Notes under the pieces: generated by a model | What the model was told of the DNA's origin: nothing | Databases searched by the model: none | What the model saw: only the letters and a program-made list of their open reading frames with translations | Position numbers and translations under genes: made by a program | Shown here: one piece after another, positions 8,126-23,973 of the stretch | Numbering within the stretch: position 1 is the stretch's first letter | Layout: every line of letters begins with the position of its first letter | Assembly: GCA_965140445.1 (NCBI GenBank) | Contig: OZ223236.1 | Coordinates: 3,714,498 to 3,778,497 of the forward strand | Length of the DNA stretch: 64,000 nt | Source: Candidatus Ozemobacteraceae bacterium | Lineage (GTDB): Bacteria > Muiribacteriota > Ozemobacteria > Ozemobacterales > Ozemobacteraceae | Reading direction: 5' to 3'

Positions 8126-8161
8126 CAAAAAAATGCCACTAATTTAGTGGCATTTTTTTTT
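8126..8161 (+). terminator. Rho-independent terminator after serA.
   Basis: atgccact-aattt-agtggcat followed by T9. Confidence 0.6.
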
Positions 8162-8180
8162 ATGCAGTTTTTTGTTATTT

Positions 8181-11100
8181 ATGCTAAAATCCAATTTCTC
8201 AAAAAAAAAAATGTCAAAAATTGTGAAAAATTTATTTATATTAACTTTATCATTATTACTATTTTTCCCAAGTTTCCTTTGGGGAGCCATTTTACCCTAC
8301 CCCGAAGTTGTGAATAGTCAAAAGTATGATCAGGAAGAACTTTACCGCCTGTACAAGTTTTATAAAATTCGCCCCGCTACCGTAGACCTATGCCAAAGAA
8401 TTGCTGATAAACTTGAAGGAATGGATGCTATTGAGCTGGCAATAGAATGGCATAAGCATACCCTTGAGCTACCCTTAAAACCAGAAATTCGTTCTAAAAT
8501 AAATAAAAAAATAGAAGAGCTTTCAAATTACTCTCCGGAGATGAAGCAAAATTTACCACTTACTGAAAAAGACAAACTGATTGCCAGCGCGACCATTCTA
8601 GAAGATTCTAATTCTCCCGACCAATCGGCTATAAATTACCTTCAAGCTTATGAATTAAGCAAAGAGCCGCAGTTACTTGTTGCTGCAATAGAGCGTTTTT
8701 CGTGGGCCTCTAAACCTTCATCAGCCCTAAAAGCCTATGAGAAGCTACTTAGAACCAAGGGCTATAAGACTACAACAACCGATCTGCAGAAAATGGGCGA
8801 ACTAGCAGAATGGGCAACCAATTATCCAAAAGCTCTTTATTATTACAAGCGCGTTTTTAAACGTTCACCATCTCTAGCAAACGGAGAAAAAGTTGTCCAG
8901 GCCCATCTGGCTTTAAATGAAAATGCTGAAGCAGCATCATTAATGGAAAAGTTAATTCTTAAATACCCTCGTTCAAAAGGCTTAAGGGCACAGTTGGTTG
9001 ATATTTATTCATGGCAAGGCAAAACAGATAAAGCAACCGCACTTTTAGAACAGTTGCCTAGCAGATACTTGACCTTAGAAAGGCTTTTTATGCGAGCCAG
9101 TGAGTATTTAAAAACCTCACAAAATGAAAAATGCCTTAAAGACTGCGACAGTATAATTCTAAAAAAAAGAAGAAAAACGGCTCCAGAGAATGCAATAAAA
9201 GCAGCAATCATTGCAATTAGTTCGATTCAACAAACTAAGACCTCAACAAATGCTTCAAAATATAAGGACGTCATCGTCAGAAACTTTAAATATCTAAGAA
9301 AAACAGGTTCGCTTGAACCTTTTGAGCTGGTGACTGTATTTCGAGTTTTAGCAGAAAACGCCGAGGCCAAAAATGACCTGAACCAGGCTGCTTCTTATAG
9401 AGAGAAGCTGCTTTTTGTTGAAGATTCCGACCAGGAAAGCCTGCTAAAACTGGCTGAAATTTACACAAAACAAAATAACCTGTCTTCTGCCATTAAAGCT
9501 TATGAAAAATTGCTCAAGATAACCCCTGAAGATCCATACTTAAAGAATGATCTTTCTCAACTTTATATAAAAACAGGACAGGCGTGGAAATCGGTACAGA
9601 TTCTTGAAGGCGCTTACCAAGCAGGGGAATCTCCAGAACTTCATAGGCAAGAACTTCTAAACGCTTATAAAGCCAACAATAACAAAAGAAAAATAGCCAG
9701 CTTTTTGCAAGAAAACCAACAAGACTTTCAAGTTGAAAGAAGAGAACTAATCAATGCTTACCTTGAAGCTGGAGAAAACTGGGAAGCAGCCCAATTAATA
9801 TTAAAGGAATTGGAGCAAAACCCATTTGACGATGACCTTGCAAAAACACTAAAGGAACTTTCGCCTTATTATCCCCAACAATATAAAACCTTTAAGAAGC
9901 ATGAACAGCAGTGGATTGAAAAGAGCTATAACAAACAGATTGCATCAATAACCCTGGCCTTAGAAAAGAACCCGGTAAACGTATCGCTTTTAAAGGAAAG
10001 AGCAGCAGTTTACACATATCTGAATAAGCCCGATCGGGCCATGCAGGACTACAAACTGGTCTTTAAGATAAGCAAAGGTGAAGTGGATAGCCTGAAAAAA
10101 GCTATTGAGACTGGCGAGTGGGCAGGAAAATCTCCGGAAGTTAAAGAACTAAGAAAGTCATTGAATAGGATTGAACCTGAAAACGCCTCTAATACTCAAG
10201 CTCTGGCACAACTTTACGCATCCGATCAAGATTTTTCCAAAAGCTATGAATTGTTTAAATCATTAGAAAACAATTCTTCACTCGATCCCGTAATTCTTAA
10301 CACATCAGCATTTCAGTCCTACGAGTGGTCTGGGCGGTCCCATAGCACGAAAAAATTGATTGATGAACTCAGGAATAAGATACAAAACCATAAAGACAAT
10401 TTTGCAAAAAAATCCTATAAAAGTCAGAAAAATCATTTAAGAGCCAATATCGGCCCAGTTTTCAGAACCTCATTTAATTTTTTCCATGATACGAGCGATC
10501 TTTATGACTCAAGATTTAACATCTTTTCAAGATTTAACGTGCAGCAAAATAGCTTAATGGAGTTTGAAATGAGAGACCATTCCTTCACATGGGATGGAAC
10601 AACACAAAGAAGTTTTAAAGGTTCAAGTTTTAGTCTCAGGAAAAAACACACTAATTTGAAAAGAGATCTGACTTATGGCCTGAATCTGTTAAGAGACAGA
10701 ATAGACAACGATACGGCAATTTATCTGCCCGAGGTTTCCTACAGATTTAAAGGGCATAAAAAATGGACAGAATTAGGATTCAGCGAAAATGTAATTTTTG
10801 ACACCCCCGAATCCATGCGGCAAAACATTAAATACCGAAAACTAAGTGTAACTCACCAGAGAGAAATCAATAAATACAATGATCTCAGATTATATTACGA
10901 AGTGGGTAGAAACAGTGAAAAAATAGACAAACATCTATATAGTCTCACCTGGGATCATGTGTTAGGCAACGACCCATTCAGATCAATTCAATACTCTTAC
11001 ACAGTTGAAGATTCAGATCTGGAATTTGATGATAGATTTTATTATGAAGATTATCTTCAAACTCATCAAATTGGATGGTATGGAGAACAGAAAGTTAAAA

Positions 11101-11327
11101 ACACCGGCTGGCGAGAAATGCTTGCCAACTGGTATGTCTATTACGGAATGGATGGAGCAGGCAATGCATTTAGAGGCATATCTGCTGGTCTGGAAGGCTA
11201 TATGAAAAATAATTTATTCTGGCGATTAGCTGGAGATTTAAGAGATTCTTCACAAACAGGAACCCCAGGAGCACGCCCCTATAACTATTGGGACTACACA
11301 GCTTCTATTGAATGGAGGGGATGGTAA
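8181..11327 (+). CDS. pelB: PelB-like exopolysaccharide export protein: signal peptide, long TPR array, C-terminal outer-membrane beta-barrel.
   Basis: Track ORF starts at a TTG (8172). ATGs at 8181 or 8211 give the signal peptide MSKIVKNLFILTLSLLLFFPSFLWGA. Residues ~50-700 are TPR-like (repeated AxxYxxLL / Y-K-x-A patterns). The last ~330 aa are Y/W/N/S/R-rich and end ...WDYTASIEWRGW, a typical OM-barrel C-terminal aromatic. Translationally coupled to pelD/E/F/G. PgaA and BcsC have similar architecture, so the PelB call rests on context. Confidence 0.6.
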   Translation: MLKSNFSKKKMSKIVKNLFILTLSLLLFFPSFLWGAILPYPEVVNSQKYDQEELYRLYKFYKIRPATVDLCQRIADKLEGMDAIELAIEWHKHTLELPLKPEIRSKINKKIEELSNYSPEMKQNLPLTEKDKLIASATILEDSNSPDQSAINYLQAYELSKEPQLLVAAIERFSWASKPSSALKAYEKLLRTKGYKTTTTDLQKMGELAEWATNYPKALYYYKRVFKRSPSLANGEKVVQAHLALNENAEAASLMEKLILKYPRSKGLRAQLVDIYSWQGKTDKATALLEQLPSRYLTLERLFMRASEYLKTSQNEKCLKDCDSIILKKRRKTAPENAIKAAIIAISSIQQTKTSTNASKYKDVIVRNFKYLRKTGSLEPFELVTVFRVLAENAEAKNDLNQAASYREKLLFVEDSDQESLLKLAEIYTKQNNLSSAIKAYEKLLKITPEDPYLKNDLSQLYIKTGQAWKSVQILEGAYQAGESPELHRQELLNAYKANNNKRKIASFLQENQQDFQVERRELINAYLEAGENWEAAQLILKELEQNPFDDDLAKTLKELSPYYPQQYKTFKKHEQQWIEKSYNKQIASITLALEKNPVNVSLLKERAAVYTYLNKPDRAMQDYKLVFKISKGEVDSLKKAIETGEWAGKSPEVKELRKSLNRIEPENASNTQALAQLYASDQDFSKSYELFKSLENNSSLDPVILNTSAFQSYEWSGRSHSTKKLIDELRNKIQNHKDNFAKKSYKSQKNHLRANIGPVFRTSFNFFHDTSDLYDSRFNIFSRFNVQQNSLMEFEMRDHSFTWDGTTQRSFKGSSFSLRKKHTNLKRDLTYGLNLLRDRIDNDTAIYLPEVSYRFKGHKKWTELGFSENVIFDTPESMRQNIKYRKLSVTHQREINKYNDLRLYYEVGRNSEKIDKHLYSLTWDHVLGNDPFRSIQYSYTVEDSDLEFDDRFYYEDYLQTHQIGWYGEQKVKNTGWREMLANWYVYYGMDGAGNAFRGISAGLEGYMKNNLFWRLAGDLRDSSQTGTPGARPYNYWDYTASIEWRGW

Positions 11328-12766
11328 TGTTAAATAGAAATAAGCACCCCCTTTGGCCTTATCTAGAAGCAGTAATCTTTATAGCAATTCTGTCAGCGAT
11401 TGATTTTTATTTTTTCCCTGATAATGCTGGATTCAGAGGAGCTTCATTTAATCCACTTTGGATACCAGTCATATTAATTTCTGGCAGATATGGAACAGCA
11501 CCAGCAATTTTCACGGGACTCTTATGTAGCTTTTATTATTATTACACAACAAATTTAGAAAACTTCTTTTTTGGAGAATTCTCCTTATCATCTTCAGACA
11601 AATTGTTGATGTTTTGTTTCCTTTTTTTTGGTGCCTGGATGGGCCAAATGTATGACAGGATCATATATCGCTATTTCAGCCTTGAATCTGACCATCAAGA
11701 TTTGCAGGAGCAATTTGATAATCTTTATCAGCATTACAAAGCTTCAAAGGAAACCAATAAAGAACTTGAAAAAAAACTTATTAAAAAGCATACAACGGTT
11801 TCAAATCTTTATTCCATGGCCAAAAACCTTGAAAGTCTTAAAGAAGAAGAACTTTATAAAGCAACTTTAGATCTGGTTGAAAGATTTATTCATGCCAGAA
11901 AAGGCGCATTCTATCTCAAGAATAAAGATGGGAAGTTATTCCCGGTAGCATCGTTTGGATATGAAGAAGACCCAACCGATATGCTTACTCAGAAAGCAGA
12001 AAAAAACGCCTTGATTCAGCAAGCAATAAAAAGTGACCTGCCAATATCTTTTCTGGATGGATTTAAAAATCAGCCCGAACTCGAAGAATCTGAAAAATGC
12101 CTCCTTGCCGCTCCAATAAAGTTATTAAGCTCTGCCGAAAATGTGGGTCTAATAACGATCGACGATTCATCTTTCATCAACCTGAATGCTGGAAACATGA
12201 GGATTCTTGGAATTATAGCGGATTGGGTTGCAAATGCTATCCAAAAAAGCAAACTTGTTGCGGATTTAAAGGAAAAAGAAATTAGTGATGCGCTTTCAGG
12301 AACTTATTCTTACAAGTTTTATCTCACAAGATTGAGTGAAGAAGCCAGCAGATTTATGCGCCACGGCACTCCATTTACGATGGTACTTATGGAATTAAAA
12401 GACTTTAAAAAACTCCCTGAAGAAGCTCAAAAGTCTACTTTAAAAACCCTTGGCGAAATCTTTAAAAGATCCATTCGCTATCATGATCTCATTTGCCGTT
12501 ACAAGACTTTAGGTATTTTCGCTTTTCTCTTTCCGTTGTCAGAGGAAGCAGACAGCTCTTTCCATATGAAACGATTAATCAGCAATATTCAAAATTATCA
12601 CCTTAAACCTTTTAAAAATGGAAAAGAGCTAGATATTAAGGTGGTCTTCCAGACAGTTAAGGATCAGCAACCTGTAACGCTTTATCGTTTGCCACCATCA
12701 GAAGCAGCTGAGATACTGATTGATCATATAGACAGATTAATGGAAAATAATGAAAAGACTGCTTAA
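11312..12766 (+). CDS. pelD: PelD-like c-di-GMP receptor: 4 TM helices, GAF-like middle, degenerate GGDEF with intact RxxD I-site.
   Basis: 484 aa. N-terminal hydrophobic segments. C-terminal GGDEF-fold alignment: DALSGTYSYKFYLTRLSEEASRF...MELKDFKKL...RYHDLICRYKTLGIFAFLFP. That is RxxD (RYHD) followed by RY-KTLGIF where active cyclases have RY-GGEEF. Overlaps pelB by 16 nt. Confidence 0.6.
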   Translation: MEGMVMLNRNKHPLWPYLEAVIFIAILSAIDFYFFPDNAGFRGASFNPLWIPVILISGRYGTAPAIFTGLLCSFYYYYTTNLENFFFGEFSLSSSDKLLMFCFLFFGAWMGQMYDRIIYRYFSLESDHQDLQEQFDNLYQHYKASKETNKELEKKLIKKHTTVSNLYSMAKNLESLKEEELYKATLDLVERFIHARKGAFYLKNKDGKLFPVASFGYEEDPTDMLTQKAEKNALIQQAIKSDLPISFLDGFKNQPELEESEKCLLAAPIKLLSSAENVGLITIDDSSFINLNAGNMRILGIIADWVANAIQKSKLVADLKEKEISDALSGTYSYKFYLTRLSEEASRFMRHGTPFTMVLMELKDFKKLPEEAQKSTLKTLGEIFKRSIRYHDLICRYKTLGIFAFLFPLSEEADSSFHMKRLISNIQNYHLKPFKNGKELDIKVVFQTVKDQQPVTLYRLPPSEAAEILIDHIDRLMENNEKTA

Positions 12767-13934
12767 CATAGTTGCTATTATAATAGGCCTCATTGCAAAC
12801 CTGGTAGAGCTTTATTCCGTATGGCTCCTAACATTATCAAAAGAGCCTGTTTCTTTTGTTAATTCTCTAGTTTTACATCTTGTTGCCTCTATTTTAATAT
12901 TCATCGCTGTAGCCTTTAGCTTTAAAAAGGTTCAAAAAGAAACACCAGATGACAATAAACTCGCAGAGCAAGAGACTGAGGAAGAGTTTGAGCACATAGT
13001 TCACCCCGAAATTGAAATACTGGAAAGAGCAGAAAAAGAGTTAGAAACCAAAGAAACTGAACAGGTAAAAAACCCACTATTGTGGCCTTCCTTTTTCCTT
13101 TCCTTCTTTCTTCCTATTTTTGGTGTTTTGGTAACCTCAGTGTTGGCAATTCTTATCTCCCCAAACGAAAAGAAAGAGTCAGAAGTGTTTGACGATTACA
13201 TTGATTATATAAGATTAAATGCATCAGACAGGCCAAGATTTAGCTCAATTAATTTTGAATCTCATGTTGCTGGAAAACTTAATTTAGAGCCAATTGTTGA
13301 TTTACTGAGCTCAAACAAGAAAAGTGTTGTCTGGGGTTCATTGGAAAACCTTTCGCATCGAAGCGATAGCCTGGCGGTTTCATTAATCAAACAAACCATT
13401 CAACGAAGTGATATGGATATTAAATATCTTTCCAGCCTTGGACTTGACAGAATTGAGAGTTCATTTTCCAAAAAGTTGGCATTACAAAGAACAGCCTTAA
13501 AAAAGGACAGTTCAATAGAAAATTATTTAAATCTGTTTAAAATAGTTCTTCAATATATTAACTCAGGGCTCCTTGACAAAGAATTGAGTGAAAATCTTAT
13601 TATTGAAACGCTTGAATCAATAAGCCAGGCAAATGAAACTTATCCTGGAAATCCCACCATAGATTCTTATAAAGCAACTCTATTGCTAAATTTAAATAGA
13701 TTAGAAGAAGCAGGAGAAATCTTTAAAAACCTTATAGATAAAAAAATGCTTGCAGATAATTTTAAAATACAGGCCTGTGAGGTCTTTTTTCAAAAAGCAG
13801 ACCTGGAAATAGTAGAAAAGCTGATAGCTGAACTGACTAACAATGAATTTAATCAGGGCTTCATTGAAAAGGTTCAATTTGAAACAGAGCTTTCTGATTT
13901 AAGAGAATTCTGGCTCAAGGAAGAGAATATTTAA
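12750..13934 (+). CDS. pelE: PelE-like inner-membrane TPR protein.
   Basis: 394 aa. 2-3 N-terminal TM helices (IVAIIIGLIANLV..., LVLHLVASILIFIAVAF, FFLSFFLPIFGVLVTSVLAILI) followed by a helical TPR-like domain. Position between pelD and pelF. No family-specific motif was recognisable, so this is a context call. Confidence 0.4.
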   Translation: MKRLLNIVAIIIGLIANLVELYSVWLLTLSKEPVSFVNSLVLHLVASILIFIAVAFSFKKVQKETPDDNKLAEQETEEEFEHIVHPEIEILERAEKELETKETEQVKNPLLWPSFFLSFFLPIFGVLVTSVLAILISPNEKKESEVFDDYIDYIRLNASDRPRFSSINFESHVAGKLNLEPIVDLLSSNKKSVVWGSLENLSHRSDSLAVSLIKQTIQRSDMDIKYLSSLGLDRIESSFSKKLALQRTALKKDSSIENYLNLFKIVLQYINSGLLDKELSENLIIETLESISQANETYPGNPTIDSYKATLLLNLNRLEEAGEIFKNLIDKKMLADNFKIQACEVFFQKADLEIVEKLIAELTNNEFNQGFIEKVQFETELSDLREFWLKEENI

Positions 13935-13935
13935 A

Positions 13936-15453
13936 GTGACTAATAAAGAATTTCCACAGGTAGACATTGAACTGGTATTGGAAGGAAGCTATCCGTATGT
14001 AACCGGAGGGGTTTCAGCCTGGACTCATAGATTAATAAAAGGAATGCCTGAAAAAACCTTTGGCATTGTACATTTAGCCTCGCGGCCGGCAGACACGGTT
14101 AAAATGAAGTTTGACCTGCCCGAAAATGTCTTGTATCTGCACCATATTTATATTCACGATCCCTCTTTTATGGCTGGAAAAAGCTGTAAAGAAATAGAGG
14201 GGAATAAATTTTATAACAGCATGTATAATATGCATATTGAAGCGAGACACGGGAGCGTTCTGAAGTTTAAAGATCTGGTAACCAAACTGACTTCAGATAA
14301 ATGCATTTCATCTTTAAAGGAAATGTTTTACAGTGAAAAGGCATTTGCTCTGTTAATAGCCCTTTACAAAAAAGGCTTTGAAAATAGCTCATTCATTGAT
14401 TTTTTCTGGACCTGGCGTTACATGCACGTTCCGCTATTTCAGATTTTTCAAACAAAAAAAACAAGACCTAAAATAATTCATGCGGCTTCAACTGGCTATG
14501 CTGGTTTTTATGCTGCCATGAGAAAAATGGTTGATAATATTCCGTTTCTGCTTACCGAACATGGCATATACACTCGAGAGCGAGCCATAGAAATAGTGCG
14601 TTCAGAAACCATTTTTACGGAAAACACAGAGGATAGCCAGATAAATTTTGATCAAGGCACCTTTAAGCGTCTATGGTTAAGCTTTTTTGAGGTCATTGGA
14701 AAATGGACTTACCAAACAGCAGATCAAATCATTACTCTCTTTGAAGGCAATAAAAACGCTCAAATTGACTTGGGTGCCCCCGCAGAAAGAATTGAGATTA
14801 TTCCAAACGGGATTTCGCTCGATCAGTTTATGGGAATAAGAAAGAAAGGCCTGCCAAATAAAGAAAGTCTACAGATTGGTTTTGTTGGCAGAGTCGTTTC
14901 AATCAAGGATTTAAAAACACTTTTAAGATCCATGAAAATTGTAACTTTAAAATACCCAAAAGCCATACTTCATATTATTGGGCCACTTGAAGAAGAAAAA
15001 GAATATGCCAAAGCAATGATAAGACTTTCGCACGACCTTGGAATCTCAGATAACGTAAAATTTCATGGCACACAAAATGTAAAAGTGTTCTACCAGGATC
15101 TTGACTTGCTTGTATTCACCTCAATATCTGAAGGACAGCCTTTAACAATGCTGGAAGCGATGGCTGCAGGTCTTCCAATTGTTGGAACAGACGTGGGTGG
15201 ATGTAGGGAGCTGGTAGAAGGAAGAACAGAAGCCGACCAGGAGCTGGGCGCCTGTGGGATTATTACCAACCTTTCTGCTCCGGGAGAAACTGCAAGGGCA
15301 ATAATAGATATTTTAACCAGCAAAGATTTATTTCAAGCAATGGTAGTCTCTGGTAGAGAGCGTGTTAAAGCTTATTACTCCCAGGAAAATGTATTGCAAT
15401 CTTACAAGGCAATCTATGAAAAAAATCTGACTATGGTTTCAGGGAAAAACTGA
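13936..15453 (+). CDS. pelF: PelF-type GT4 glycosyltransferase.
   Basis: 505 aa. N-terminal EGSYPYVTGGVSAWTHRLI (PelF/DUF3492-like). C-terminal GT4 motif region EGQPLTMLEAMAAGLPIVGTDVGG. Confidence 0.8.
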   Translation: MTNKEFPQVDIELVLEGSYPYVTGGVSAWTHRLIKGMPEKTFGIVHLASRPADTVKMKFDLPENVLYLHHIYIHDPSFMAGKSCKEIEGNKFYNSMYNMHIEARHGSVLKFKDLVTKLTSDKCISSLKEMFYSEKAFALLIALYKKGFENSSFIDFFWTWRYMHVPLFQIFQTKKTRPKIIHAASTGYAGFYAAMRKMVDNIPFLLTEHGIYTRERAIEIVRSETIFTENTEDSQINFDQGTFKRLWLSFFEVIGKWTYQTADQIITLFEGNKNAQIDLGAPAERIEIIPNGISLDQFMGIRKKGLPNKESLQIGFVGRVVSIKDLKTLLRSMKIVTLKYPKAILHIIGPLEEEKEYAKAMIRLSHDLGISDNVKFHGTQNVKVFYQDLDLLVFTSISEGQPLTMLEAMAAGLPIVGTDVGGCRELVEGRTEADQELGACGIITNLSAPGETARAIIDILTSKDLFQAMVVSGRERVKAYYSQENVLQSYKAIYEKNLTMVSGKN

Positions 15454-15454
15454 T

Positions 15455-16894
15455 ATGGCAGGAATTGGATTTAGACTTCAAAGACTTGTTGACCACGGGT
15501 CCTATACTTTTAGTTTGCGTGGATTTCTTTTCGCAACTTTTCTTGTTGCCGGCCCCTGGATTACCACGATTGCAGTAATCAGTATTTTTTCAAACTTCAC
15601 TCACCTTGGCGGACTTGATTACGACATTTTTAGAACCTCAATTATTTATTTTTATGCCTTTTCTCTTATTTTAACAGGCCTCTATCAAATGCCTCTCACT
15701 CGCTACCTAGCAGATGAGTTGTTTGCTGAACGCCTTGAATCTCTAGTTTCATCCTATCTTGGAATGATAGTCTTCGTTTCTATTACTCAAGGGGTTTTTG
15801 CAGCAATTTACGCCAGTTTTATTCCCCTATCGCTTTTATACAAAACCCTTTTTGTAACAGGTTCTGTTACAGTGGCTCTTCTGTGGCTGGCTGGCATTTT
15901 TTTAAGCTGCTTACGCGATTTTGAATATATTGGCTGGATCTATATTTTTGGTGGGTTAATAAGTCTTGCTGCTGGAATCCATCTTGAGCCCTATTTTGGC
16001 ATGGAAGGCACCTTAGCCGGCTTTATCACTGGCCAGCTTCTTACCTGGTTGGGTATTTCCTGGAGAATTTGCGTTGAATTGGGCGAAGGAAAAATGCAGA
16101 CCAGCTTTGAGTGCCTAAATTCGCTCAAAAACTACAAACTTCATCTTATAACTGGCCTTTCATACAACCTCGCAATATGGCTGGACAAATTCATCTTTTG
16201 GTTCTCAGATATTGGCTCAGAAGCAGTAAAAGGCTTACACTATTTTCAAAACTATGACGTGCCAATTTTTCTTGCCTATGTTTTCGTTATTCCCGGATTA
16301 GGAATTTTCCTAACTAGAGTAGAAACTGATTTTTATAGAACTTACAGGGCTTTTTATGGGGCTATTCTTGAGAAAAAACCTCTCAAAATGATCATTGCCA
16401 AATATAAGGATATTAAATCTACGATTGATCTAACTACCTGGGAACTAATAAGAATCCAGGGAGCAATAGCAGCCATAATATATATTTTTGCCCCAGAACT
16501 GCTTCGCCTAATCCACTATTCAACAGATTTTACAAGCGTCCTGCGCTGGGGAATTCTGGCGGCCTTTTTTCAGGTTCTTTTCCTGGTCTATTCTCTACTT
16601 TTGCTTTACTTTGAATTCCGTTGTGAAGCTACAGCATGCAATCTAATGTTTTTATTCATAAACGTTATTTTTACTTATCTTACTGTCGCATACAGAATGG
16701 AATGGGCCTACGGAGCCGGCTACTTTTTGTCAACTTGTATTGCCGCGCTGTCTGCGAGATTTATCCTCTATCACCGATTAAAAAAGCTTATTTTTTACAC
16801 TTTTATGACCCAGAAAATGCCTGGAGAAATAAATTCTTCTTTGCTTGAACTGGACATGCAAGTGCGTGGAAACACCCTTTTTAAGGAAGAATAA
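15455..16894 (+). CDS. pelG: PelG polysaccharide exporter-like polytopic membrane protein.
   Basis: 479 aa with ~12 hydrophobic segments. N-terminus MAGIGFRLQRL, the characteristic PelG-family start. 1-nt gap to pelF. Confidence 0.75.
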   Translation: MAGIGFRLQRLVDHGSYTFSLRGFLFATFLVAGPWITTIAVISIFSNFTHLGGLDYDIFRTSIIYFYAFSLILTGLYQMPLTRYLADELFAERLESLVSSYLGMIVFVSITQGVFAAIYASFIPLSLLYKTLFVTGSVTVALLWLAGIFLSCLRDFEYIGWIYIFGGLISLAAGIHLEPYFGMEGTLAGFITGQLLTWLGISWRICVELGEGKMQTSFECLNSLKNYKLHLITGLSYNLAIWLDKFIFWFSDIGSEAVKGLHYFQNYDVPIFLAYVFVIPGLGIFLTRVETDFYRTYRAFYGAILEKKPLKMIIAKYKDIKSTIDLTTWELIRIQGAIAAIIYIFAPELLRLIHYSTDFTSVLRWGILAAFFQVLFLVYSLLLLYFEFRCEATACNLMFLFINVIFTYLTVAYRMEWAYGAGYFLSTCIAALSARFILYHRLKKLIFYTFMTQKMPGEINSSLLELDMQVRGNTLFKEE

Positions 16895-16895
16895 G

Positions 16896-18746
16896 ATGAA
16901 ATTTTTTTTAAAAAAAGTTCTGTTTCTTTATTTTATTCTGGTTATTTCGACAGCTTTTTGTGAAGCCAGGACACAGCAATTTCTCATGATTGAAGACAGT
17001 GAATCAGAAGCTTCCAAAACCATATCATATAACTTAAAAAAAACCATGGCCGACGCGAGCCTGGCAACGCGAGCAATAGACAAAAAAGAGCTCCTGGATT
17101 TTTCCTTTGAAATGGTATCTGAGTTTTCCGGAATTGTATTTACCAGCGACAGCAGTTCCGACTATCTATATGGTCCAGATGCAATAAGGTTTGTGGAAGA
17201 AGGCGGAACAATGGTTTTTGCCCACCATTCATATCCAGAAGACTACATTGAAAAATTTGGGATTAAACCTGTCACAACTATAGCCAACCTATGGAATTCT
17301 GCTAAAGGAATAAAATCGGTTAAACCTGTATTCAGAGAAACCAGGTTTGAGTTAGCTACAGGAAGCTTTACAACTGGCTGCATGAACATTTCCTTTTCTA
17401 AAGAATGGGAGCAACTCTTGAGTTTTGCTGAACCGGATATTCCTTTGCTTGCAACAAGAAAATTTGGCAATGGCAGTGTCGTATACTGGAACTCATCATG
17501 TTTAAGCTCTAAACTTTATCGTGGGATTTTTCTGTTTTCATTATTAAAATCACTACCAGTCTCGGCGATGAGTGTTCACAATGCTTTTTTAATGCACCTT
17601 GATGACTCTCCTCCACCTGCTTATGGAATAATGGAAGGGCCAGTTGCCCGAGATCTGGGGATGAAGGATTACGACTTTCATAAAAGAGTATGGGTTAAGC
17701 AGGTTTTTCCTATTCTTGATTCGTATAAGCTAGCGCTGACACATTTCTTAACCTTCACCTATGATGGCAAAATTCAAGGTCCGTTTCAAAAAAAGTCGGA
17801 CAGAGAACCTTTTTTTTCAGATTATTTGAAATTACTTCGTGAAAGAGGAGACGACTTTGGATTTCATGGTTACAATCATCAATCTTTAACTATGGGAAAA
17901 AGTCCATCCACACCCTGGACAAGTAGAAAAGAAATGGCTGATTCGGTCAGAACTGGTTATCAGCTTTGGAATGAAATGGGCTTGCCGCCGACACTTGCCT
18001 ATGTCCCACCAAACAATGTGATTGATGAAACAGGGAAACTGGTTATTTCTGAGGAATTTCCATCCATCAGGGTTATTTGCAGGGTTTACAACGATGGTGA
18101 TGAATATTATTCAAGAAATTCATCTGGCTTTTTAGCAGGAATTGGAAAAGTTAACAACGAAGCCATGAAAAAGATTCTAAGTCTTTATGCGAGCAGGCGT
18201 GCTATGACATCACCAAAAGCCAGAGAATTCTTTAGAGGTGATGAATATGGGGTTGACCCAGAAAACCCCAAATTTCTTAACCTGCCCCGTCTTTCAAGCG
18301 GACACTTCTTAACTGAATTTGAACAGGCTTTCATTCTTAATGGAATAATGGCACATGGGATCGCTGTCCATTTCTTTCATCCTGATGACATTTATGATCC
18401 TTCCAGACGTGAAAAAAGCTGGGAATACACCTTAGCCGCATTAAAGCGTTTACTCATATTTTTTAATAAAAACTTCGATTTTGCCAGGAAAATTCATACT
18501 TCCAGTTTTTTAACGGACTTTAAAAAATATGTCTTTGGAAATGCAGAAATTCAAATTGAGAATAGCAATTTGTTAAAAATTAAAACTGATGGTCGAAGAT
18601 TCTTTTACCTTTTTTGTGGGAACAATAAATCTGTAGAACCACTTATTGAAGGTGGAAAAATTCTTTCAAAAGTAGATGAGAACGTTTATTTAATTGAATT
18701 GTCTGGCAAAGAAGCCAGCGTAGAGTTCCAGCGAAAAATGAATTAA
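16896..18746 (+). CDS. Secreted PelA-like polysaccharide deacetylase (CE4-like) protein, paralog 1.
   Basis: Start moved to the ATG at 16896 (MKFFLKKVLFLYFILVISTAFCEA signal peptide; RBS AAGGAAG); the track start at 16845 overlaps pelG. CE4-like motifs: LMHLDDSPP (DD metal/acid motif) and FHGYNHQSL (HxxxH). ~60% identical to 19629-21473. Confidence 0.55.
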   Translation: MKFFLKKVLFLYFILVISTAFCEARTQQFLMIEDSESEASKTISYNLKKTMADASLATRAIDKKELLDFSFEMVSEFSGIVFTSDSSSDYLYGPDAIRFVEEGGTMVFAHHSYPEDYIEKFGIKPVTTIANLWNSAKGIKSVKPVFRETRFELATGSFTTGCMNISFSKEWEQLLSFAEPDIPLLATRKFGNGSVVYWNSSCLSSKLYRGIFLFSLLKSLPVSAMSVHNAFLMHLDDSPPPAYGIMEGPVARDLGMKDYDFHKRVWVKQVFPILDSYKLALTHFLTFTYDGKIQGPFQKKSDREPFFSDYLKLLRERGDDFGFHGYNHQSLTMGKSPSTPWTSRKEMADSVRTGYQLWNEMGLPPTLAYVPPNNVIDETGKLVISEEFPSIRVICRVYNDGDEYYSRNSSGFLAGIGKVNNEAMKKILSLYASRRAMTSPKAREFFRGDEYGVDPENPKFLNLPRLSSGHFLTEFEQAFILNGIMAHGIAVHFFHPDDIYDPSRREKSWEYTLAALKRLLIFFNKNFDFARKIHTSSFLTDFKKYVFGNAEIQIENSNLLKIKTDGRRFFYLFCGNNKSVEPLIEGGKILSKVDENVYLIELSGKEASVEFQRKMN

Positions 18747-18765
18747 TTTAAAAACTTACAGAATT

Positions 18766-19587
18766 CTAAAAATCAGGAAAAACCTTATCCAGGTCACGTG
18801 TTGAAAAACATGGCAAGAAACCAAGCTTTGCAGCTTTTTCAGAGATTTCTTTCATCTGAAGCCTCTTTCTCGTATATTCAAGTATTCCTACGAACTTGCC
18901 TGCTTTTTTGATTTTAGAAAGCTCTTTTATCTTCTCTTTTTGCCAGGTTTTATCAACTTTTTCTTCCGCCCATGAAGCAAAAAGACCTTCTTGAACAATG
19001 CCATTATAATTGTCCATTATTCTTTTATCCTCGTACAACCCGTGGCTATTCTGAAATAAAAGTATGACTTTGGGATTTGATTTTCGCCACTTTTCTGCAA
19101 GGCGTTCAAGGAAAACAACCATTCTTTCTTTGTATTCTTCAGTATCTTCATAGATTTCCCAGGCATCAGTAATGTCTAAGTAAAAACCGTCAAACCCTTT
19201 TGCCAGTATTTCATCTGAATAGGATTGAATTATATCAAACCACTTTTCTTCCCAGTATTTTACCGGGAAGTTGCCAGTCCATACAGGGTTTTCATTGATT
19301 ATTAAATCTTTAACTTCTGGTTTTTTAAAATAGCTACGGTATTCTTCTGCTTCACCTATAGATAAATAGGCCAAAACATATTTTTTTGTTTTTTTTAAAA
19401 ACTTAATCTCAAAGGGTTTGTATGCATCTGGATCAACTACCACTAAATCTGACGAGGTCTTCAAAACAGAAAATAATCTTTGCTTGTGATAGACGCAAAA
19501 CCAGTTCTTTGGTTTAATATTATCAAGGGCTCCAAAGCATGGAAAGACACAAAGCATTAATGCCAAAAATATTATTCTCTGAATCAT
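18766..19587 (-). CDS. GH114-family glycoside hydrolase (PelA hydrolase-domain-like, TM1410-type TIM barrel), secreted.
   Basis: 273 aa with signal peptide MIQRIIFLALMLCVFPCFG. YLSIGEAEEY and GFDGFYLDITDAWE motifs, typical of GH114 endo-alpha-1,4-hexosaminidases. Confidence 0.6.
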   Translation of the reverse strand: MIQRIIFLALMLCVFPCFGALDNIKPKNWFCVYHKQRLFSVLKTSSDLVVVDPDAYKPFEIKFLKKTKKYVLAYLSIGEAEEYRSYFKKPEVKDLIINENPVWTGNFPVKYWEEKWFDIIQSYSDEILAKGFDGFYLDITDAWEIYEDTEEYKERMVVFLERLAEKWRKSNPKVILLFQNSHGLYEDKRIMDNYNGIVQEGLFASWAEEKVDKTWQKEKIKELSKIKKAGKFVGILEYTRKRLQMKEISEKAAKLGFLPCFSTRDLDKVFPDF

Positions 19588-19628
19588 ATGCTACAATCAA
19601 CCCCAATTAAATTTTAAAAGCAAAAAAA

Positions 19629-21473
19629 ATGAAAAACATAATCAAACTAATAACAACGTTCTTTTTTATAACTATAATAATACCCGCTTTTGCAGAATTC
19701 AAAAAGCAACAATTTTTGCTGATTGAGGATCAGGAATCTAAAACCTCTCAACAAATTTCATATAACATTGAAAAAGCCATGTCGGGCGCAAGCTTATCAA
19801 CAAGAAGGCTTGAGAAAAAACAATTGCTGGACTTTTCTTTTAACGATATTTCCTCTTTTACCGGAATTATTTTCACCAGCGACTCCTGCCCTGACTATCT
19901 TTATGGACCAGATGCTAAAAATTTCGTTTTAGATGGTGGAATTCTTTGCTTTGCCCACCAGTATTATTCGCAAGAGTATATAAGTGATTTTGGCGTATCT
20001 CTAGAATCTGGAGAATCAGATGCAATCTATGAAGATGCTCGGGGAGTAAAAAGCCTTAAGCCCATTTTTAACGATGAATATTTTGAAATGGCAAAAGAGG
20101 GGTTTACGACTGGGAGGATCAAGCTCTCTTTTTCAGCTGAATGGGAAACTGTTCTTAATTATATCAACCCGGAAAATTCGCTGCTTTTAACACGAAGATT
20201 TGGAAAAGGAAGCATAATTTATTGGAACTCCTCTTGTTTGACATCCAAACTTTTTAGAGGAATATTCCTTTTCACCCTTTTGAAGTCTCTTCCTATTTCA
20301 GCCATGAGCGTTCACAATGCTTTTTTAATGCACATCGACGATTCACCACCTCCAGCCTATGGAATAATGGAAGGACCTGTAGCTAGAGATTTTGGAATGA
20401 AGGACTATGACTTCCACAAAAGAGTCTGGGCTAAGGAAGTCCTACCTATGCTTGATGCAGCTGGCATAAAGCTCACCCATTTTTTAACTTTTGCTTATGA
20501 TGGAAAAATTAAAGGGCCTTTTCTAAAACAAAGCGATAGAGAGCCATTTTTCTCCGAATTTCTTAACATATTAAGAAAAAGGGGCGATGACTTTGGGTTC
20601 CATGGATACAACCATCAATCTCTTACAATTGGCCATAGTCCATCAACCCCGTGGAAAAGCCTTGATGAAATGTTGGATGCAGTAAAAGCGGGCTACAAAA
20701 TCTGGCAGAAACTGGGACTACCCCCCACCCTCTGCTATGTTCCACCAAATAATGTAATAGATAAGCATGGCAAATTAGTCTTATCAGAAGGTTTTCCAAG
20801 CATAAGAGTTATTTGCCGAGTTTACAAAGACTATGATAATGATCATTTCGCAAAAAAATCCACTGGTTATATTGCAGGACTTGGAAAAGTTGACAGCAAA
20901 GTAATGAAGAAAATTTATAGTCTTTATGCAAGCCGAAAAGCCATGACTTCACCCAAAGCGAGAGAATATTTTAATGGCGATGAATTTGGATTAGACCCAG
21001 AAGTTCCAAAATTTCTTGACCTGCCAAGATTGTCCAGTGGACACTTTTTGACTGAATATGAAAAACTTCAGATTTTAAATGGAATAATGGCTCACGGAAT
21101 TGCGGTTCATTTTTTTCATCCTGATGACATATATGACCCCGCCAGACGTGAAAAGAACTGGGAATATACTCTTTCATCATTAAAAAGGCTTTTACTTTTC
21201 TTTTCAAAGAATTTTGGTTTCGCACGAAAGTTACATACTTCAAAATTTGTTCAGGATTTTAAAAAATACGTTTTTGGAAACTCGAAAATCTTTTCAAATG
21301 GCGAAACAAAGTTAAAAATTCAACAAAAAGGCAGAAGATTTTACTACTTGTTCAGGCGTGACGCTTCAAATATTGCACCTAAAATCACTGGAGGAAAAAT
21401 AATAGCCGAAGTTGAAAAAGGTAAAATTTTCCTCATCGAGCTTAAAAGCCAGGAAGCAAACATAGAAAACTAA
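19629..21473 (+). CDS. Secreted PelA-like polysaccharide deacetylase (CE4-like) protein, paralog 2.
   Basis: 614 aa with signal peptide MKNIIKLITTFFFITIIIPAFA. Conserved LMHIDDSPP and FHGYNHQSL. Collinear with paralog 1 along its whole length. Confidence 0.55.
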   Translation: MKNIIKLITTFFFITIIIPAFAEFKKQQFLLIEDQESKTSQQISYNIEKAMSGASLSTRRLEKKQLLDFSFNDISSFTGIIFTSDSCPDYLYGPDAKNFVLDGGILCFAHQYYSQEYISDFGVSLESGESDAIYEDARGVKSLKPIFNDEYFEMAKEGFTTGRIKLSFSAEWETVLNYINPENSLLLTRRFGKGSIIYWNSSCLTSKLFRGIFLFTLLKSLPISAMSVHNAFLMHIDDSPPPAYGIMEGPVARDFGMKDYDFHKRVWAKEVLPMLDAAGIKLTHFLTFAYDGKIKGPFLKQSDREPFFSEFLNILRKRGDDFGFHGYNHQSLTIGHSPSTPWKSLDEMLDAVKAGYKIWQKLGLPPTLCYVPPNNVIDKHGKLVLSEGFPSIRVICRVYKDYDNDHFAKKSTGYIAGLGKVDSKVMKKIYSLYASRKAMTSPKAREYFNGDEFGLDPEVPKFLDLPRLSSGHFLTEYEKLQILNGIMAHGIAVHFFHPDDIYDPARREKNWEYTLSSLKRLLLFFSKNFGFARKLHTSKFVQDFKKYVFGNSKIFSNGETKLKIQQKGRRFYYLFRRDASNIAPKITGGKIIAEVEKGKIFLIELKSQEANIEN

Positions 21474-23544
21474 GCGCTTTTAAAGCATTTTGCTCATCAA
21501 GATGACGAGCAATACATTCGCCAAGGTCGCTTATAGAAAAAGGTTTTTTTAGTATTTCGGAATCGGTTCTATCCAGGAAATCATCTGGAAGTTCTTTCCG
21601 GCTATAGCCAGTACAAAATACTATTGGAACACCTTTTCGAATTTCACAGATTTTTTCAAAAGCATCTCTGCCATTTAATTCTGGCATTACAACATCAAAA
21701 ACCAGTAGATCTACATTATCTGGATTACTTTCAAATGCTTCTAAGGCTTCTTGTCCATCGGACACAGCAATAACATTGAATCCCAGCTTTTTCAGCATTC
21801 TTTTGGAAAGCTCCCGCACCATCTCTTCATCTTCCGCAAGGATAGCTGTTTTACCAGGAAACTTATTCTGGTAAATCTTTTTATCAGTTCCCACTAGTTC
21901 ATAAACTGGTGTTATTTCTCCAGACACCGGCAGAAAAACTCTAAAAGTTGAACCCTGTCCAACCTTGCTCTCAACATTGATTTTACCCTTATGTCTTTTA
22001 ACAATTCCATGAACTGATGCAAGGCCCATTCCAGTGCCCTCGCCAGATTTTTTGGTTGTAAAAAATGGTGTAAAAATTTTCTTCTGAATTTCTGGTGGAA
22101 TGCCCTCTCCATGATCAGCAACTTCAATTACTACATATTTACCCTTTTCACTTTTCTGAACGGCACCATGCCGGCTTAAATCGCCTCTAATTACAGATAT
22201 CTCAATCGAACCTGACTTGTTTTTCTTCATTGCATCACGCGCGTTTACGCATAAATTAGTCAGAATCTGGTCAAACTGACTTGGGTCCACAACGAAATAA
22301 ATTTCATCCTGATAGGGCTTAAAGTTTATTTTATAAGTTTCCCCTATAATTCTTTTTATCATACCTACAATCTGAGTAACTTGCTTGTTTACTTCAATCC
22401 TTTGGGGCTTAAAAGTCTCCCTCCTGCTAAAAAACATCATTTGCTTAACAAGGCTCTGTCCTCTTAAACCTGCCTCAACAATACCTTCTAATAGTGATAA
22501 GTCCTCAGAGTTTTCTGAAATTTCGGGAGCCATTAATTCCGCATATCCAAGTATAGCCTGCAAAATATTATTGAAATCATGAGCCACACCGCCAGCTAAA
22601 CTCCCCATAACTTCCATTTTCTGAACCTGTCTTTGCTTTTGCTCTCGGTTTTGAAGTTCGGTAATATCAATAACTGAAACAAGAATTAGTTCATAATCAC
22701 CATTTTCATCAATCTGAGGCGATGCTGCAATGGAGAAAACATGATCAGTATTTGTTTTTATACTGTTGCTAAAAGCAAATTTTTTTAAAACCTGGGCTTT
22801 CTTTATCGGGCATTCCTTACAGATACCGGAAGATTTACAAATTACCTCATTACATTGTCGAAATTGCATATCAGAGAATTCCAGACCAAATACTTCCTGG
22901 CTGGAAGCATTTGCCCAAACAATTCGCAGATCAGAATCAAAATAAAATAAACAGTCCTGAACCCTCTGCAAAACTGCTCGGTTACTAATTAATGAATCTG
23001 CCATAAGCTTCTTAAAAGCTGTTGATTCAGTTGAATCATAAAAACTGATTGCTATTGATTCTGAATCTAGTTGAAATTTTTTTACAGAATAAGTGCGCCC
23101 CGATTTGCCGAGAAAAATATTGAAACATTCATTTTCAGACTTTTCTTTTATATTTTCTTTCAAAATTTTAGAATCCTTGCCAAAAATATCAATCAAAGAG
23201 ATTGATCTATTTGGAAAATCTGCATAGGAAAATTCTTTTTGAAAAGCTTTATTTGCAGCAATCAAAGAAAAGTCTTCATCGTCATTTACCAGTAATGATG
23301 GTTCGTTTAAAGAATCAAAAAAATGCAGTATCTTCTCATCTCTCTTTGCAACTTCTGATTGGCTAATTCTAAATTTTTTACGGAAAAAGTTTGCAATGAA
23401 AACAGCTAAAACAAGCATAAAGAAAGCAAAAACTATTGAGAGGCTTATCCCTGATTTTATGCCGTTATTAGCATAAAGATCGGCATAAAGAACCAAAGAA
23501 CATCCAAGAATAAAAACGGATAATTTCCAACATTTCTTACTCAT
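21442..23544 (-). CDS. Hybrid sensor histidine kinase (TM, PAS, HisKA, HATPase, receiver).
   Basis: 700 aa. N-terminal TM. H-box GVAHDFNNILQAILGYAELM. G-box region GEGTGMGLASVHGIVKRH. C-terminal receiver ILAEDEEMVRE...DLLVFDVVMPELNGRD. Its 3' end overlaps the pelA-like paralog 2 convergently by ~30 nt. Confidence 0.8.
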   Translation of the reverse strand: MSKKCWKLSVFILGCSLVLYADLYANNGIKSGISLSIVFAFFMLVLAVFIANFFRKKFRISQSEVAKRDEKILHFFDSLNEPSLLVNDDEDFSLIAANKAFQKEFSYADFPNRSISLIDIFGKDSKILKENIKEKSENECFNIFLGKSGRTYSVKKFQLDSESIAISFYDSTESTAFKKLMADSLISNRAVLQRVQDCLFYFDSDLRIVWANASSQEVFGLEFSDMQFRQCNEVICKSSGICKECPIKKAQVLKKFAFSNSIKTNTDHVFSIAASPQIDENGDYELILVSVIDITELQNREQKQRQVQKMEVMGSLAGGVAHDFNNILQAILGYAELMAPEISENSEDLSLLEGIVEAGLRGQSLVKQMMFFSRRETFKPQRIEVNKQVTQIVGMIKRIIGETYKINFKPYQDEIYFVVDPSQFDQILTNLCVNARDAMKKNKSGSIEISVIRGDLSRHGAVQKSEKGKYVVIEVADHGEGIPPEIQKKIFTPFFTTKKSGEGTGMGLASVHGIVKRHKGKINVESKVGQGSTFRVFLPVSGEITPVYELVGTDKKIYQNKFPGKTAILAEDEEMVRELSKRMLKKLGFNVIAVSDGQEALEAFESNPDNVDLLVFDVVMPELNGRDAFEKICEIRKGVPIVFCTGYSRKELPDDFLDRTDSEILKKPFSISDLGECIARHLDEQNALKALSFLCLLPGF

Positions 23545-23577: not shown

Positions 23578-23973
23578 CTATTTTTTTTGTTTTTTCTTTC
23601 TTAACTCGGCGAATTCAGGGTAAAGCCTGGCAAAGCATTCTTCACAAAATCCGTGTGAGAAATCAACTTCTTTCTCATTTTGCAGCCACTTATCAATTTC
23701 AACCCATTTTTCATCTGATTTGATCTTTTTGCATCCAGCGCAAATGACCTGAAAGCTTTCCAGATAACGAATTTTCTTTTCAAGGCGTGAAAACCAGAAA
23801 AAGTTTGCCAACGCCAGAGCAAAAATAATGATGCTCTCTAATAAACACTCGGAAACGTTAACAGGTGTAGCCTGGCCACCAAACATTGCAACCAGATCAA
23901 AATATTCATTTACCCAGATGAAAACGATTAAAAGAACGTGACTACACATCACCTGGCAGGAAATTCTGCTCAT
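23578..23973 (-). CDS. Small membrane protein with C-terminal CxxC...CxxC zinc-ribbon; likely cotranscribed with the downstream histidine kinase.
   Basis: 131 aa. Two hydrophobic helices, then CAGCKKIK...HGFCEECF. 33-nt gap to the HK start on the same strand. Confidence 0.4.
   Translation of the reverse strand: MSRISCQVMCSHVLLIVFIWVNEYFDLVAMFGGQATPVNVSECLLESIIIFALALANFFWFSRLEKKIRYLESFQVICAGCKKIKSDEKWVEIDKWLQNEKEVDFSHGFCEECFARLYPEFAELRKKKQKK

Follow-up and report, generated by a model that had tools for sequence, protein, structure and literature searches.

Why would a bacterium keep two related polysaccharide deacetylase genes on either side of a hydrolase gene that is read from the opposite strand? 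The question is raised by a locus in a 64,000-nucleotide (nt) stretch of the genome of a Candidatus Ozemobacteraceae bacterium (contig OZ223236.1, positions 3,714,498 to 3,778,497; hereafter the window, whose own numbering is used throughout), in which the three genes stand at the 3' end of an operon for the exopolysaccharide Pel. We think it probable that they form the modification end of this Pel system, a split PelA consisting of two active deacetylases of carbohydrate esterase (CE) family 26 and a hydrolase of the glycoside hydrolase (GH) family 191 type, with the two deacetylase copies differing mainly in expression. The open reading frames (ORFs) lie exactly where a preliminary description of the sequence had placed them:

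16896..18746, plus strand: paralog A, 616 amino acids (aa) from its ATG, a predicted Pel de-N-acetylase of the CE26/CBM114 type (CBM, carbohydrate-binding module).
18766..19587, minus strand: hydrolase, 273 aa, a candidate secreted endo-alpha-1,4-galactosaminidase, GH191-like (Pfam GH114 superfamily; TM1410 family).
19588..19628: spacer between hydrolase and paralog B, 41 nt, AT-rich and divergent.
19629..21473, plus strand: paralog B, 614 aa, a predicted Pel de-N-acetylase of the CE26/CBM114 type.

The hydrolase gene and paralog A converge across a gap of 19 nt, whereas paralog B and the hydrolase gene diverge. The ATG of paralog A lies 1 nt past the pelG stop codon. An alternative TTG start at 16845 would give a 633-aa protein; however, we favor the ATG because it is preceded by the Shine-Dalgarno-like sequence AAGGAAG and because the signal-like N-terminus that it yields (MK...) matches that of paralog B. 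The last 32 nt of paralog B overlap with a gene for a hybrid histidine kinase that is convergent with it. The two proteins had been described as collinear, about 620 aa long and about 60% identical. Length and collinearity hold, whereas the identity is higher, at 65% over 594 aa (83% positives, 3 gaps, E = 0), and the genes are also 65% identical at the nucleotide level. The motifs LMH[L/I]DDSPP and FHGYNHQSL, containing the reported DD and HxxxH signatures, are found in both paralogs, and AYLSIGEAEEY, containing the reported YLSIGEAEEY, is found in the hydrolase.

To which family do the paralogs belong? Both match the Pfam family DUF2194 (E about 1e-69, 235 bits against a cut-off of 30). Their scores for Polysacc_deac_1 fall on either side of its cut-off of 23.1 bits, with paralog A borderline above (24.3 bits) and paralog B below (20.6 bits), and NCBIfam contains no model for them. 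In phmmer and profile searches against all PDB sequences the sole relative at the sequence level is 9ZAU (2.8e-43 with paralog A alone, 1.3e-72 with a profile of 28 sequences). Paralog A aligns to it in two stretches, residues 33–399 and 449–556, which span the CBM, CE and C-terminal parts. The 9ZAU entry is PelA_DA of Bacillus cereus, the founder of the CAZy families CE26 and CBM114 and the "Gram-positive" form of a split PelA; work from 2026 showed that it is required for Pel and that it removes N-acetyl groups from oligomers of alpha-1,4-linked N-acetylgalactosamine (GalNAc) in a metal-dependent manner (PMC13254593). By sequence, we place the paralogs with B. cereus PelA_DA, and neither with classical CE4 enzymes nor with the deacetylase domain of Pseudomonas aeruginosa PelA.

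No CE4, Agd3 or PelA entry in the PDB is reached by the paralogs at E <= 1. The proteins had been called CE4-like, which is correct for the fold, the only feature that they have in common with CE4, but not for sequence membership: by homology to 9ZAU, the arginine lies about 90 residues past motif MT3 and the acid-activating aspartate follows MT5, in place of the canonical MT3 arginine and MT4 aspartate. Residues 520–800 of P. aeruginosa PelA (CE21), which had been proposed as the reference for alignment, likewise give no match. The full protein, with its GH166, reductase-like, CE21 and beta-jelly roll domains, shows no similarity to either paralog by phmmer or profile at E <= 1. The comparable Aspergillus fumigatus enzymes Agd3 (CE18 and CBM87) and Ega3 (GH114) are eukaryotic and stand at 9% identity with no match at the sequence level.

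The domains of paralog A are as follows:

aa 1–24: signal-like N-terminus.
aa 25–222 (nt 16968–17561): CBM114-like alpha/beta/alpha domain.
aa 223–520 (nt 17562–18455): CE26 domain.
aa 521–616: beta-sandwich.

This layout of an alpha/beta/alpha domain, a distorted (beta/alpha) esterase barrel and a C-terminal beta-sandwich is the same as in PelA_DA of B. cereus ATCC 10987, in which the esterase is a distorted (beta/alpha)7 barrel. As in B. cereus (pelDEA_DAFG), the gene adjoins pelF and pelG and the protein has no fused hydrolase domain. However, there are several differences. Identity to the Firmicutes-type homologues recovered (P0029, P0032) is approximately 23–28%, there are two copies instead of one, and the host operon includes a PelB outer-membrane component, so that the Riflebacteria-like host is a diderm. 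The N-terminal helix of B. cereus PelA_DA is a membrane anchor that contacts PelG, whereas the N-termini of the paralogs resemble cleavable signal peptides, with hydrophobic cores of 14–15 residues, small residues at -3/-1 and, in paralog B, a site between AFA and E. This suggests that both are soluble periplasmic enzymes with cleaved signal peptides. The paralogs also differ from PelA_DA in an insertion of about 45 aa in the CE domain between MT3 and the catalytic arginine (residues 400–447 of A, window 18093–18236, and the equivalent in B), which is conserved in the Riflebacteria-like clade with the consensus ...MKNIFSMYASR....

Are both copies likely to be active? In PelA_DA, D262 is the base, D263, H350 and H354 are metal ligands, P405 is the MT3 proline, R458 activates the base, H488 is the acid and D491 activates the acid (PMC13254593). 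The corresponding residues are:

Paralog A, plus strand: D236/D237 (17601–17606), H324/H328 (17865–17879), P371/P372, R465 and H495/D498 (18378–18389).
Paralog B, plus strand: D237/D238 (20337–20342), H325/H329 (20601–20615), P372/P373, R467 and H497/D500 (21117–21128).

All eight catalytic and metal-binding residues thus have identical counterparts in A and B, within identical motif contexts. Seven of the eight positions are invariant in a 28-sequence alignment of the clade, and at least 90% of the sequences retain the proline. We predict that both copies are active deacetylases.

The preliminary description had raised the idea that one paralog is a catalytically dead scaffold. Such a copy, or a pseudoenzyme that binds carbohydrate in support of its partner, is very unlikely here because the catalytic residues are intact, the rates of evolution are symmetric and both copies are under purifying selection. 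Synonymous sites between A and B are saturated (pS 0.78, the proportion of synonymous differences), so that their ratio of nonsynonymous to synonymous substitution rates (dN/dS) is not computable, and relative-rate tests and within-species ratios of nonsynonymous to synonymous polymorphism (pN/pS) were used instead. No difference in rate between A and B is seen in Tajima tests with five outgroups (p = 0.22–0.90). In a comparison of the window with another, independent assembly from this species (L083, described below), paralog A has a pN/pS of 0.14 and paralog B one of 0.16, similar to the values of 0–0.17 for the other pel genes. Moreover, of all domains the CE domain differs least between the copies, with 76% identity.

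A dead copy may exist elsewhere. The locus L008 (JADFZL010000006.1, Candidatus Riflebacteria nHGRbin4) contains adjacent CE26/DUF2194 genes at 10001–11632 and 11881–13584 beside a pel operon, the only other such adjacent pair at a pel locus that we found, and it belongs to the same broad clade. The second copy reads FEDSPPP and HCYFPFEHE, so that E replaces the base D, F the acid H and E the activating D, while the metal ligands and the arginine are kept. It is therefore a candidate pseudo-deacetylase, and by its residues the dead-copy idea is realized in L008 and not in this window. The L008 pair differs from A and B in that its genes follow each other directly in tandem, no hydrolase gene was detected at the locus, and its second copy lacks the catalytic acid and base. 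Identity within the pair is approximately 27–32% by domain, and nothing suggests that the two pairs share a duplication.

A second possibility is that two active paralogs have diverged in substrate handling, such as deacetylation pattern, chain-length preference or processivity mediated by the CBM114-like and beta-sandwich domains, and that together they give Pel its charge pattern. Outside the CE domain, identity between the copies falls to 56% in the CBM and 53% in the C-terminal beta-sandwich, and the CBM of the B. cereus enzyme lengthens the binding cleft and determines the length dependence. At the four CBM114 residues probed in B. cereus, E115 corresponds to D85, W147 to Y117, R140 to H111 in A and Q111 in B, and D231 to S205/206. 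Acidic or aromatic character is thus retained at D85 and Y117 and lost at the D231 position, and one position, 111, differs between the copies. However, the ratio of CBM to CE identity for A and B (0.73) is within the range of 0.56–0.84 of six ortholog pairs, and the tandem pair of L008 is at 0.84. Because orthologs show the same gradient across domains, there is no excess divergence of the CBM and no signal of changed substrate handling. With saturated synonymous sites (dS), no test for positive selection is possible. We regard this explanation as rather unlikely.

What is the gene between them? The hydrolase matches Pfam Glyco_hydro_114 (PF03537) with 84.1 bits against a cut-off of 27, over profile positions 18–228 of 231. 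By phmmer, its best PDB matches are Env-GH191 (9EP5, 5.4e-24) and TM1410 of Thermotoga (9EUX, 2.8e-23; 2AAM, 6.3e-23), whereas PelA is reached with just 2e-6 (PelA_H, GH166) and 5e-4 and no CAZy GH114 structure (Ega3, FsGH114) is matched at E <= 1. The best NCBIfam match is TIGR01370, the MJ1477/TM1410 family (E 2.5e-42), although its 145 bits are under the cut-off of 181. Env-GH191 and TM1410 were formerly counted as GH114 and then moved to a new family, GH191, and Env-GH191 prefers bacterial Pel (PMC12054363). The designation as GH114 in the preliminary description is therefore right for the Pfam superfamily; in the CAZy classification the nearest sequences are the founders of GH191, and GH191 is the better label.

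The catalytic residues of TmGH191, Asp156 and Glu225 (PMC12054363), align to D138 (nt 19174–19176) and E200 (nt 18988–18990), the putative nucleophile and acid/base, respectively. Of the eight homologues that adjoin pel loci of relatives, all have D138 and seven have E200, the remaining one having a gap at this position of the alignment. Like the GH191 enzymes, the protein is small, secreted and single-domain. A single-sequence AlphaFold2 model is poor (predicted local distance difference test, pLDDT, 43), and the fold is instead predicted from the 214-residue alignment to solved structures. Its presumed functional analogue is PelA_H of B. cereus (BCE_5582), the likeness being one of role and arrangement. 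In bacilli, pelA_H is likewise separate from the synthase genes and in the opposite orientation; however, it flanks the operon, whereas the hydrolase here lies between two deacetylase genes. Deletion of the separate hydrolase gene in B. cereus leads to hyper-biofilm formation (PMC7112168).

Assignment of the three genes to Pel depends on what lies upstream. The preceding plus-strand genes read as a pelB-D-E-F-G operon with the paralogs and the hydrolase at its 3' end:

8127..8159: hairpin found in a terminator scan between a serA-like gene and pelB, a perfect 15-bp palindrome, GC-poor, with A7/T7 flanks.
8172..11327, plus strand: PelB-like tetratricopeptide repeat (TPR) protein, 1051 aa, with a long C-terminal region and matches to multiple Pfam TPR families.
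11312..12766, plus strand: PelD-like predicted receptor of cyclic dimeric guanosine monophosphate (c-di-GMP), Pfam GAF_3 and GGDEF (degenerate).
12750..13934, plus strand: PelE-like membrane protein, 394 aa, between pelD and pelF, no Pfam family.
13936..15453, plus strand: PelF, GT4 glycosyltransferase (polymerase), NCBIfam equivalog NF038011 PelF (461 bits, cut-off 100), Pfam DUF3492 and Glycos_transf_1.
15455..16894, plus strand: PelG, inner-membrane exporter, Pfam PF16933 PelG (E 1e-111, full length).

The clustered PelD, PelE, PelF and PelG that make up the core of a Pel system are thus all represented. The hairpin is likely a bidirectional terminator that delimits the pel transcription unit on its 5' side. 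The PelB-like protein has weak NCBIfam PgaA/TPR matches, and it shows 22–32% identity and an orthologous position with respect to the first gene of the pel loci L003–L005, L009 and L081 of relatives; it is presumed to be the outer-membrane export scaffold and porin. Read directly from the sequence, the PelD-like protein keeps the I-site RxxD as RYHD at residue 389 and has KTLGI at the GG[DE]EF position. A GAF domain and a degenerate GGDEF domain with RxxD retained are the pattern of the PelD c-di-GMP receptor, which supports the reading of the gene row as a pel operon. PelE is assigned from its position and from 26–38% identity to the gene at the same position in the pel loci of relatives. The arrangement differs from that in P. 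aeruginosa (pelABCDEFG), in which the PelA activities are on one polypeptide, whereas here they are separate and the genes for modification stand at the end of the row. The window gave no matches in Rfam and tRNA scans.

How did the second copy arise? The locus was compared with CE26 loci in JGI metagenomes and in the species representatives of GTDB. A search for identical proteins returned no record for A (P0001) or B, and the nearest relatives, which are Rifleibacteriota metagenome-assembled genomes (MAGs), show at most 52% identity. The phylogeny of the paralogs against single-copy homologs that the preliminary description had proposed groups A and B as sisters in 100 of 100 neighbor-joining bootstraps, and the next clade (P0002/P0003) is at approximately 50% identity. 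Paralog B escaped the homologue search, as its cluster representative is a 151-aa fragment. Synteny between the window and the contig of P0002 (L081/L082) extends from the serA-like gene to a YkuD gene. In L081 the order is serA, pelBDEFG on the plus strand, hydrolase on the minus strand, a single DUF2194 gene on the plus strand and a convergent hybrid kinase on the minus strand, and the same core of pelG, opposite-strand hydrolase and single DUF2194 gene is found in L001, L002 and L009. Because these syntenic relatives carry one deacetylase at the position of B, paralog B occupies the ancestral position, and paralog A is a lineage-specific extra copy, inserted exactly between the stop codons of pelG and the hydrolase. 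The divergent spacer between hydrolase and deacetylase is approximately 106–127 nt in the single-copy relatives, compared with 41 nt here.

Separate hydrolase and deacetylase genes, which the preliminary description had read as a sign of sub-functionalisation, are not special to this locus; they are found in all close relatives, and from their gene order this state is ancestral in the Riflebacteria-like clade. Published accounts of bacilli also describe separate genes with an oppositely transcribed hydrolase (PMC7112168; PMC7890745). What is lineage-specific is just the second copy of the deacetylase, and two copies are found in only one of 161 other CE26 loci (L008). The duplication is old: saturation has been reached at synonymous sites, dN stands at 0.28, and nucleotide identity does not rise above about 74% in any tract. 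The metagenome scan gave no sequence with more than 48% identity, so that no finer dating is possible. We also considered conversion between the two genes and rejected it, since the limit of about 74% holds over 300 nt.

Other arrangements occur in the same group. In L003–L007 the CE26 gene is convergent on pelG, in the orientation opposite to that in the window, and a divergent hydrolase beside the CE26 gene was detected just in L003 and L005. Two Riflebacteria MAGs, JADFZL (L004 and L008) and JADFYG (L005 and L007), each contain a pair of complete pel loci that have diverged from each other, lie on separate contigs and have a CE26 gene apiece.

Duplicated genes can also result from assembly or annotation, for example from a collapsed or mis-joined repeat. 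We found nothing in favor of such an artefact and consider it negligible. The copies are only 65% identical in nucleotide sequence and contain no near-identical tracts, and the independent same-species metagenome assembly L083 (ENA ERZ21869602 ctg75386l; 98.6% nucleotide identity over 21.6 kb, window 6894–28526) has the same order of A, hydrolase and B, which argues against an artefact, with differences that consist of single-nucleotide polymorphisms and 1-nt homopolymer indels. In L083, the gene calls of pelB, the hydrolase, paralog B, the kinase and a symporter are split, mainly by 1-nt homopolymer indels that appear to be sequencing errors and not marks of pseudogenes; the split in pelE is not indel-based, and there is one 9-nt insertion at 21486. 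The idea that paralog B is decaying in L083 was rejected, since all five indels inside it, like nearly all others in L083, are 1-nt changes in homopolymer length, and they are scattered across many genes.

The simplest explanation for an authentic second copy is redundancy, either as an increase in dosage or as a neutral copy that was retained, with no division of labor. The symmetric rates and identical active sites are consistent with this, and within-operon locus duplications are common in synthase-dependent exopolysaccharide operons (PMC7112194). However, A and B have coexisted for long enough to diverge by 35% in amino acid sequence, with dS saturated, and purifying selection still acts on both. 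Duplicates that are completely redundant tend to be lost. The single other locus that keeps two copies has one that is degenerate, and A and B sit in different transcriptional contexts. Redundancy is thus possible, but we do not favor it.

What, then, distinguishes two conserved, apparently active enzymes? The sole concrete difference between them is context, with A fused to the synthase operon and B divergent from the hydrolase, and for this reason we regard a difference in regulation or dosage, judged from the gene arrangement, as the most likely one. Going by the homologous systems of P. aeruginosa and B. cereus, PelD with bound c-di-GMP would activate PelF, and PelG, together with PelD and PelE, would move poly-alpha-1,4-GalNAc across the inner membrane. 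In the periplasm, A and B would then remove part of the N-acetyl groups in a metal-dependent reaction that would use an Arg-activated Asp base, an Asp-His-His metal site and an Asp-activated His acid. The resulting cationic polymer, an alpha-1,4-linked chain of GalNAc and galactosamine (GalN), would leave through PelB, and the secreted GH191-type endo-galactosaminidase may trim, limit or remodel it. Copy A would be expressed together with the synthase, and copy B independently.

A more elaborate scheme would make A the biosynthetic deacetylase and combine B with the hydrolase in a separately controlled remodeling module that shares the 41-nt divergent region, with antisense read-through from pel making synthesis and cleavage mutually exclusive. 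The terminator scan found no intrinsic terminator at the junction of paralog A and the hydrolase, so that strong pel transcription could run antisense through the hydrolase into B; we do not count this absence as evidence. This scheme strikes us as improbable.

Several points weigh against the reading of a split PelA with differently expressed deacetylases. A promoter scan performed at chance level (39 found, 41.9 expected), and its matches within 19588..19628 are not above chance; separate regulation of A and B is consequently drawn from the gene arrangement and nothing else. The cleavage of signal peptides was judged by eye from the N-terminal hydrophobic segments. The clade-specific insertion of the CE domain is modeled with low confidence (pLDDT <50). 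Two of the four probed CBM residues of B. cereus, D231 and R140, are not kept, which makes carbohydrate binding by the N-terminal domain less certain. Finally, there is no room at this locus for a pelC-like gene between pelB and pelD, as these overlap (11312–11327). PelC is essential in P. aeruginosa. The gene is also absent from the syntenic L081 locus, where pelB and pelD overlap at 3392–3407.

Two neighboring genes may be mentioned. The gene that is convergent with paralog B (21442–23544, minus strand) encodes a hybrid histidine kinase with PAS, HisKA, HATPase and receiver domains. The arrangement is kept in L081 (11874–15011), and a paralogous kinase core with 38% identity is found at 38825–39952. 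Beyond it, a 131-aa ORF (23578–23973, minus strand) has two predicted hydrophobic segments, two CxxC pairs (CAGCKK ... CEEC) and no Pfam match; L083 has an ORF of the same length at this position.

The combination of CE26 with Pel extends well beyond this genome. We found pelD, pelF and pelG beside CE26/DUF2194 genes in 57 of 82 loci (for example L010, L011, L012, L019 and L027), in host lineages that include Nitrospirota, Planctomycetia, Omnitrophota, Spirochaetes, Bacteroidota and Balneolales, and CE26 use in PelB-containing, diderm pel loci without PelC is widespread among the loci examined. In the literature that we searched, we found no description of a CE26 enzyme in a PelB-containing operon without PelC, of its pairing with GH191 or of the retention of two intact copies.

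The locus overturns nothing, as every part belongs to a characterized family and an opposite-strand hydrolase gene is known from bacilli; it is an unusual but unsurprising variant of a known Pel system. However, it indicates that the CE26/CBM114 enzymes, described as the Gram-positive form of PelA, also serve PelB-containing (diderm) Pel systems, here together with GH191 and with no PelC at the locus, which gives a broader picture of Pel modification across bacteria. The intact pair of paralogs would provide a natural comparison for the extent and pattern of Pel deacetylation, and the pair in L008 a second one.

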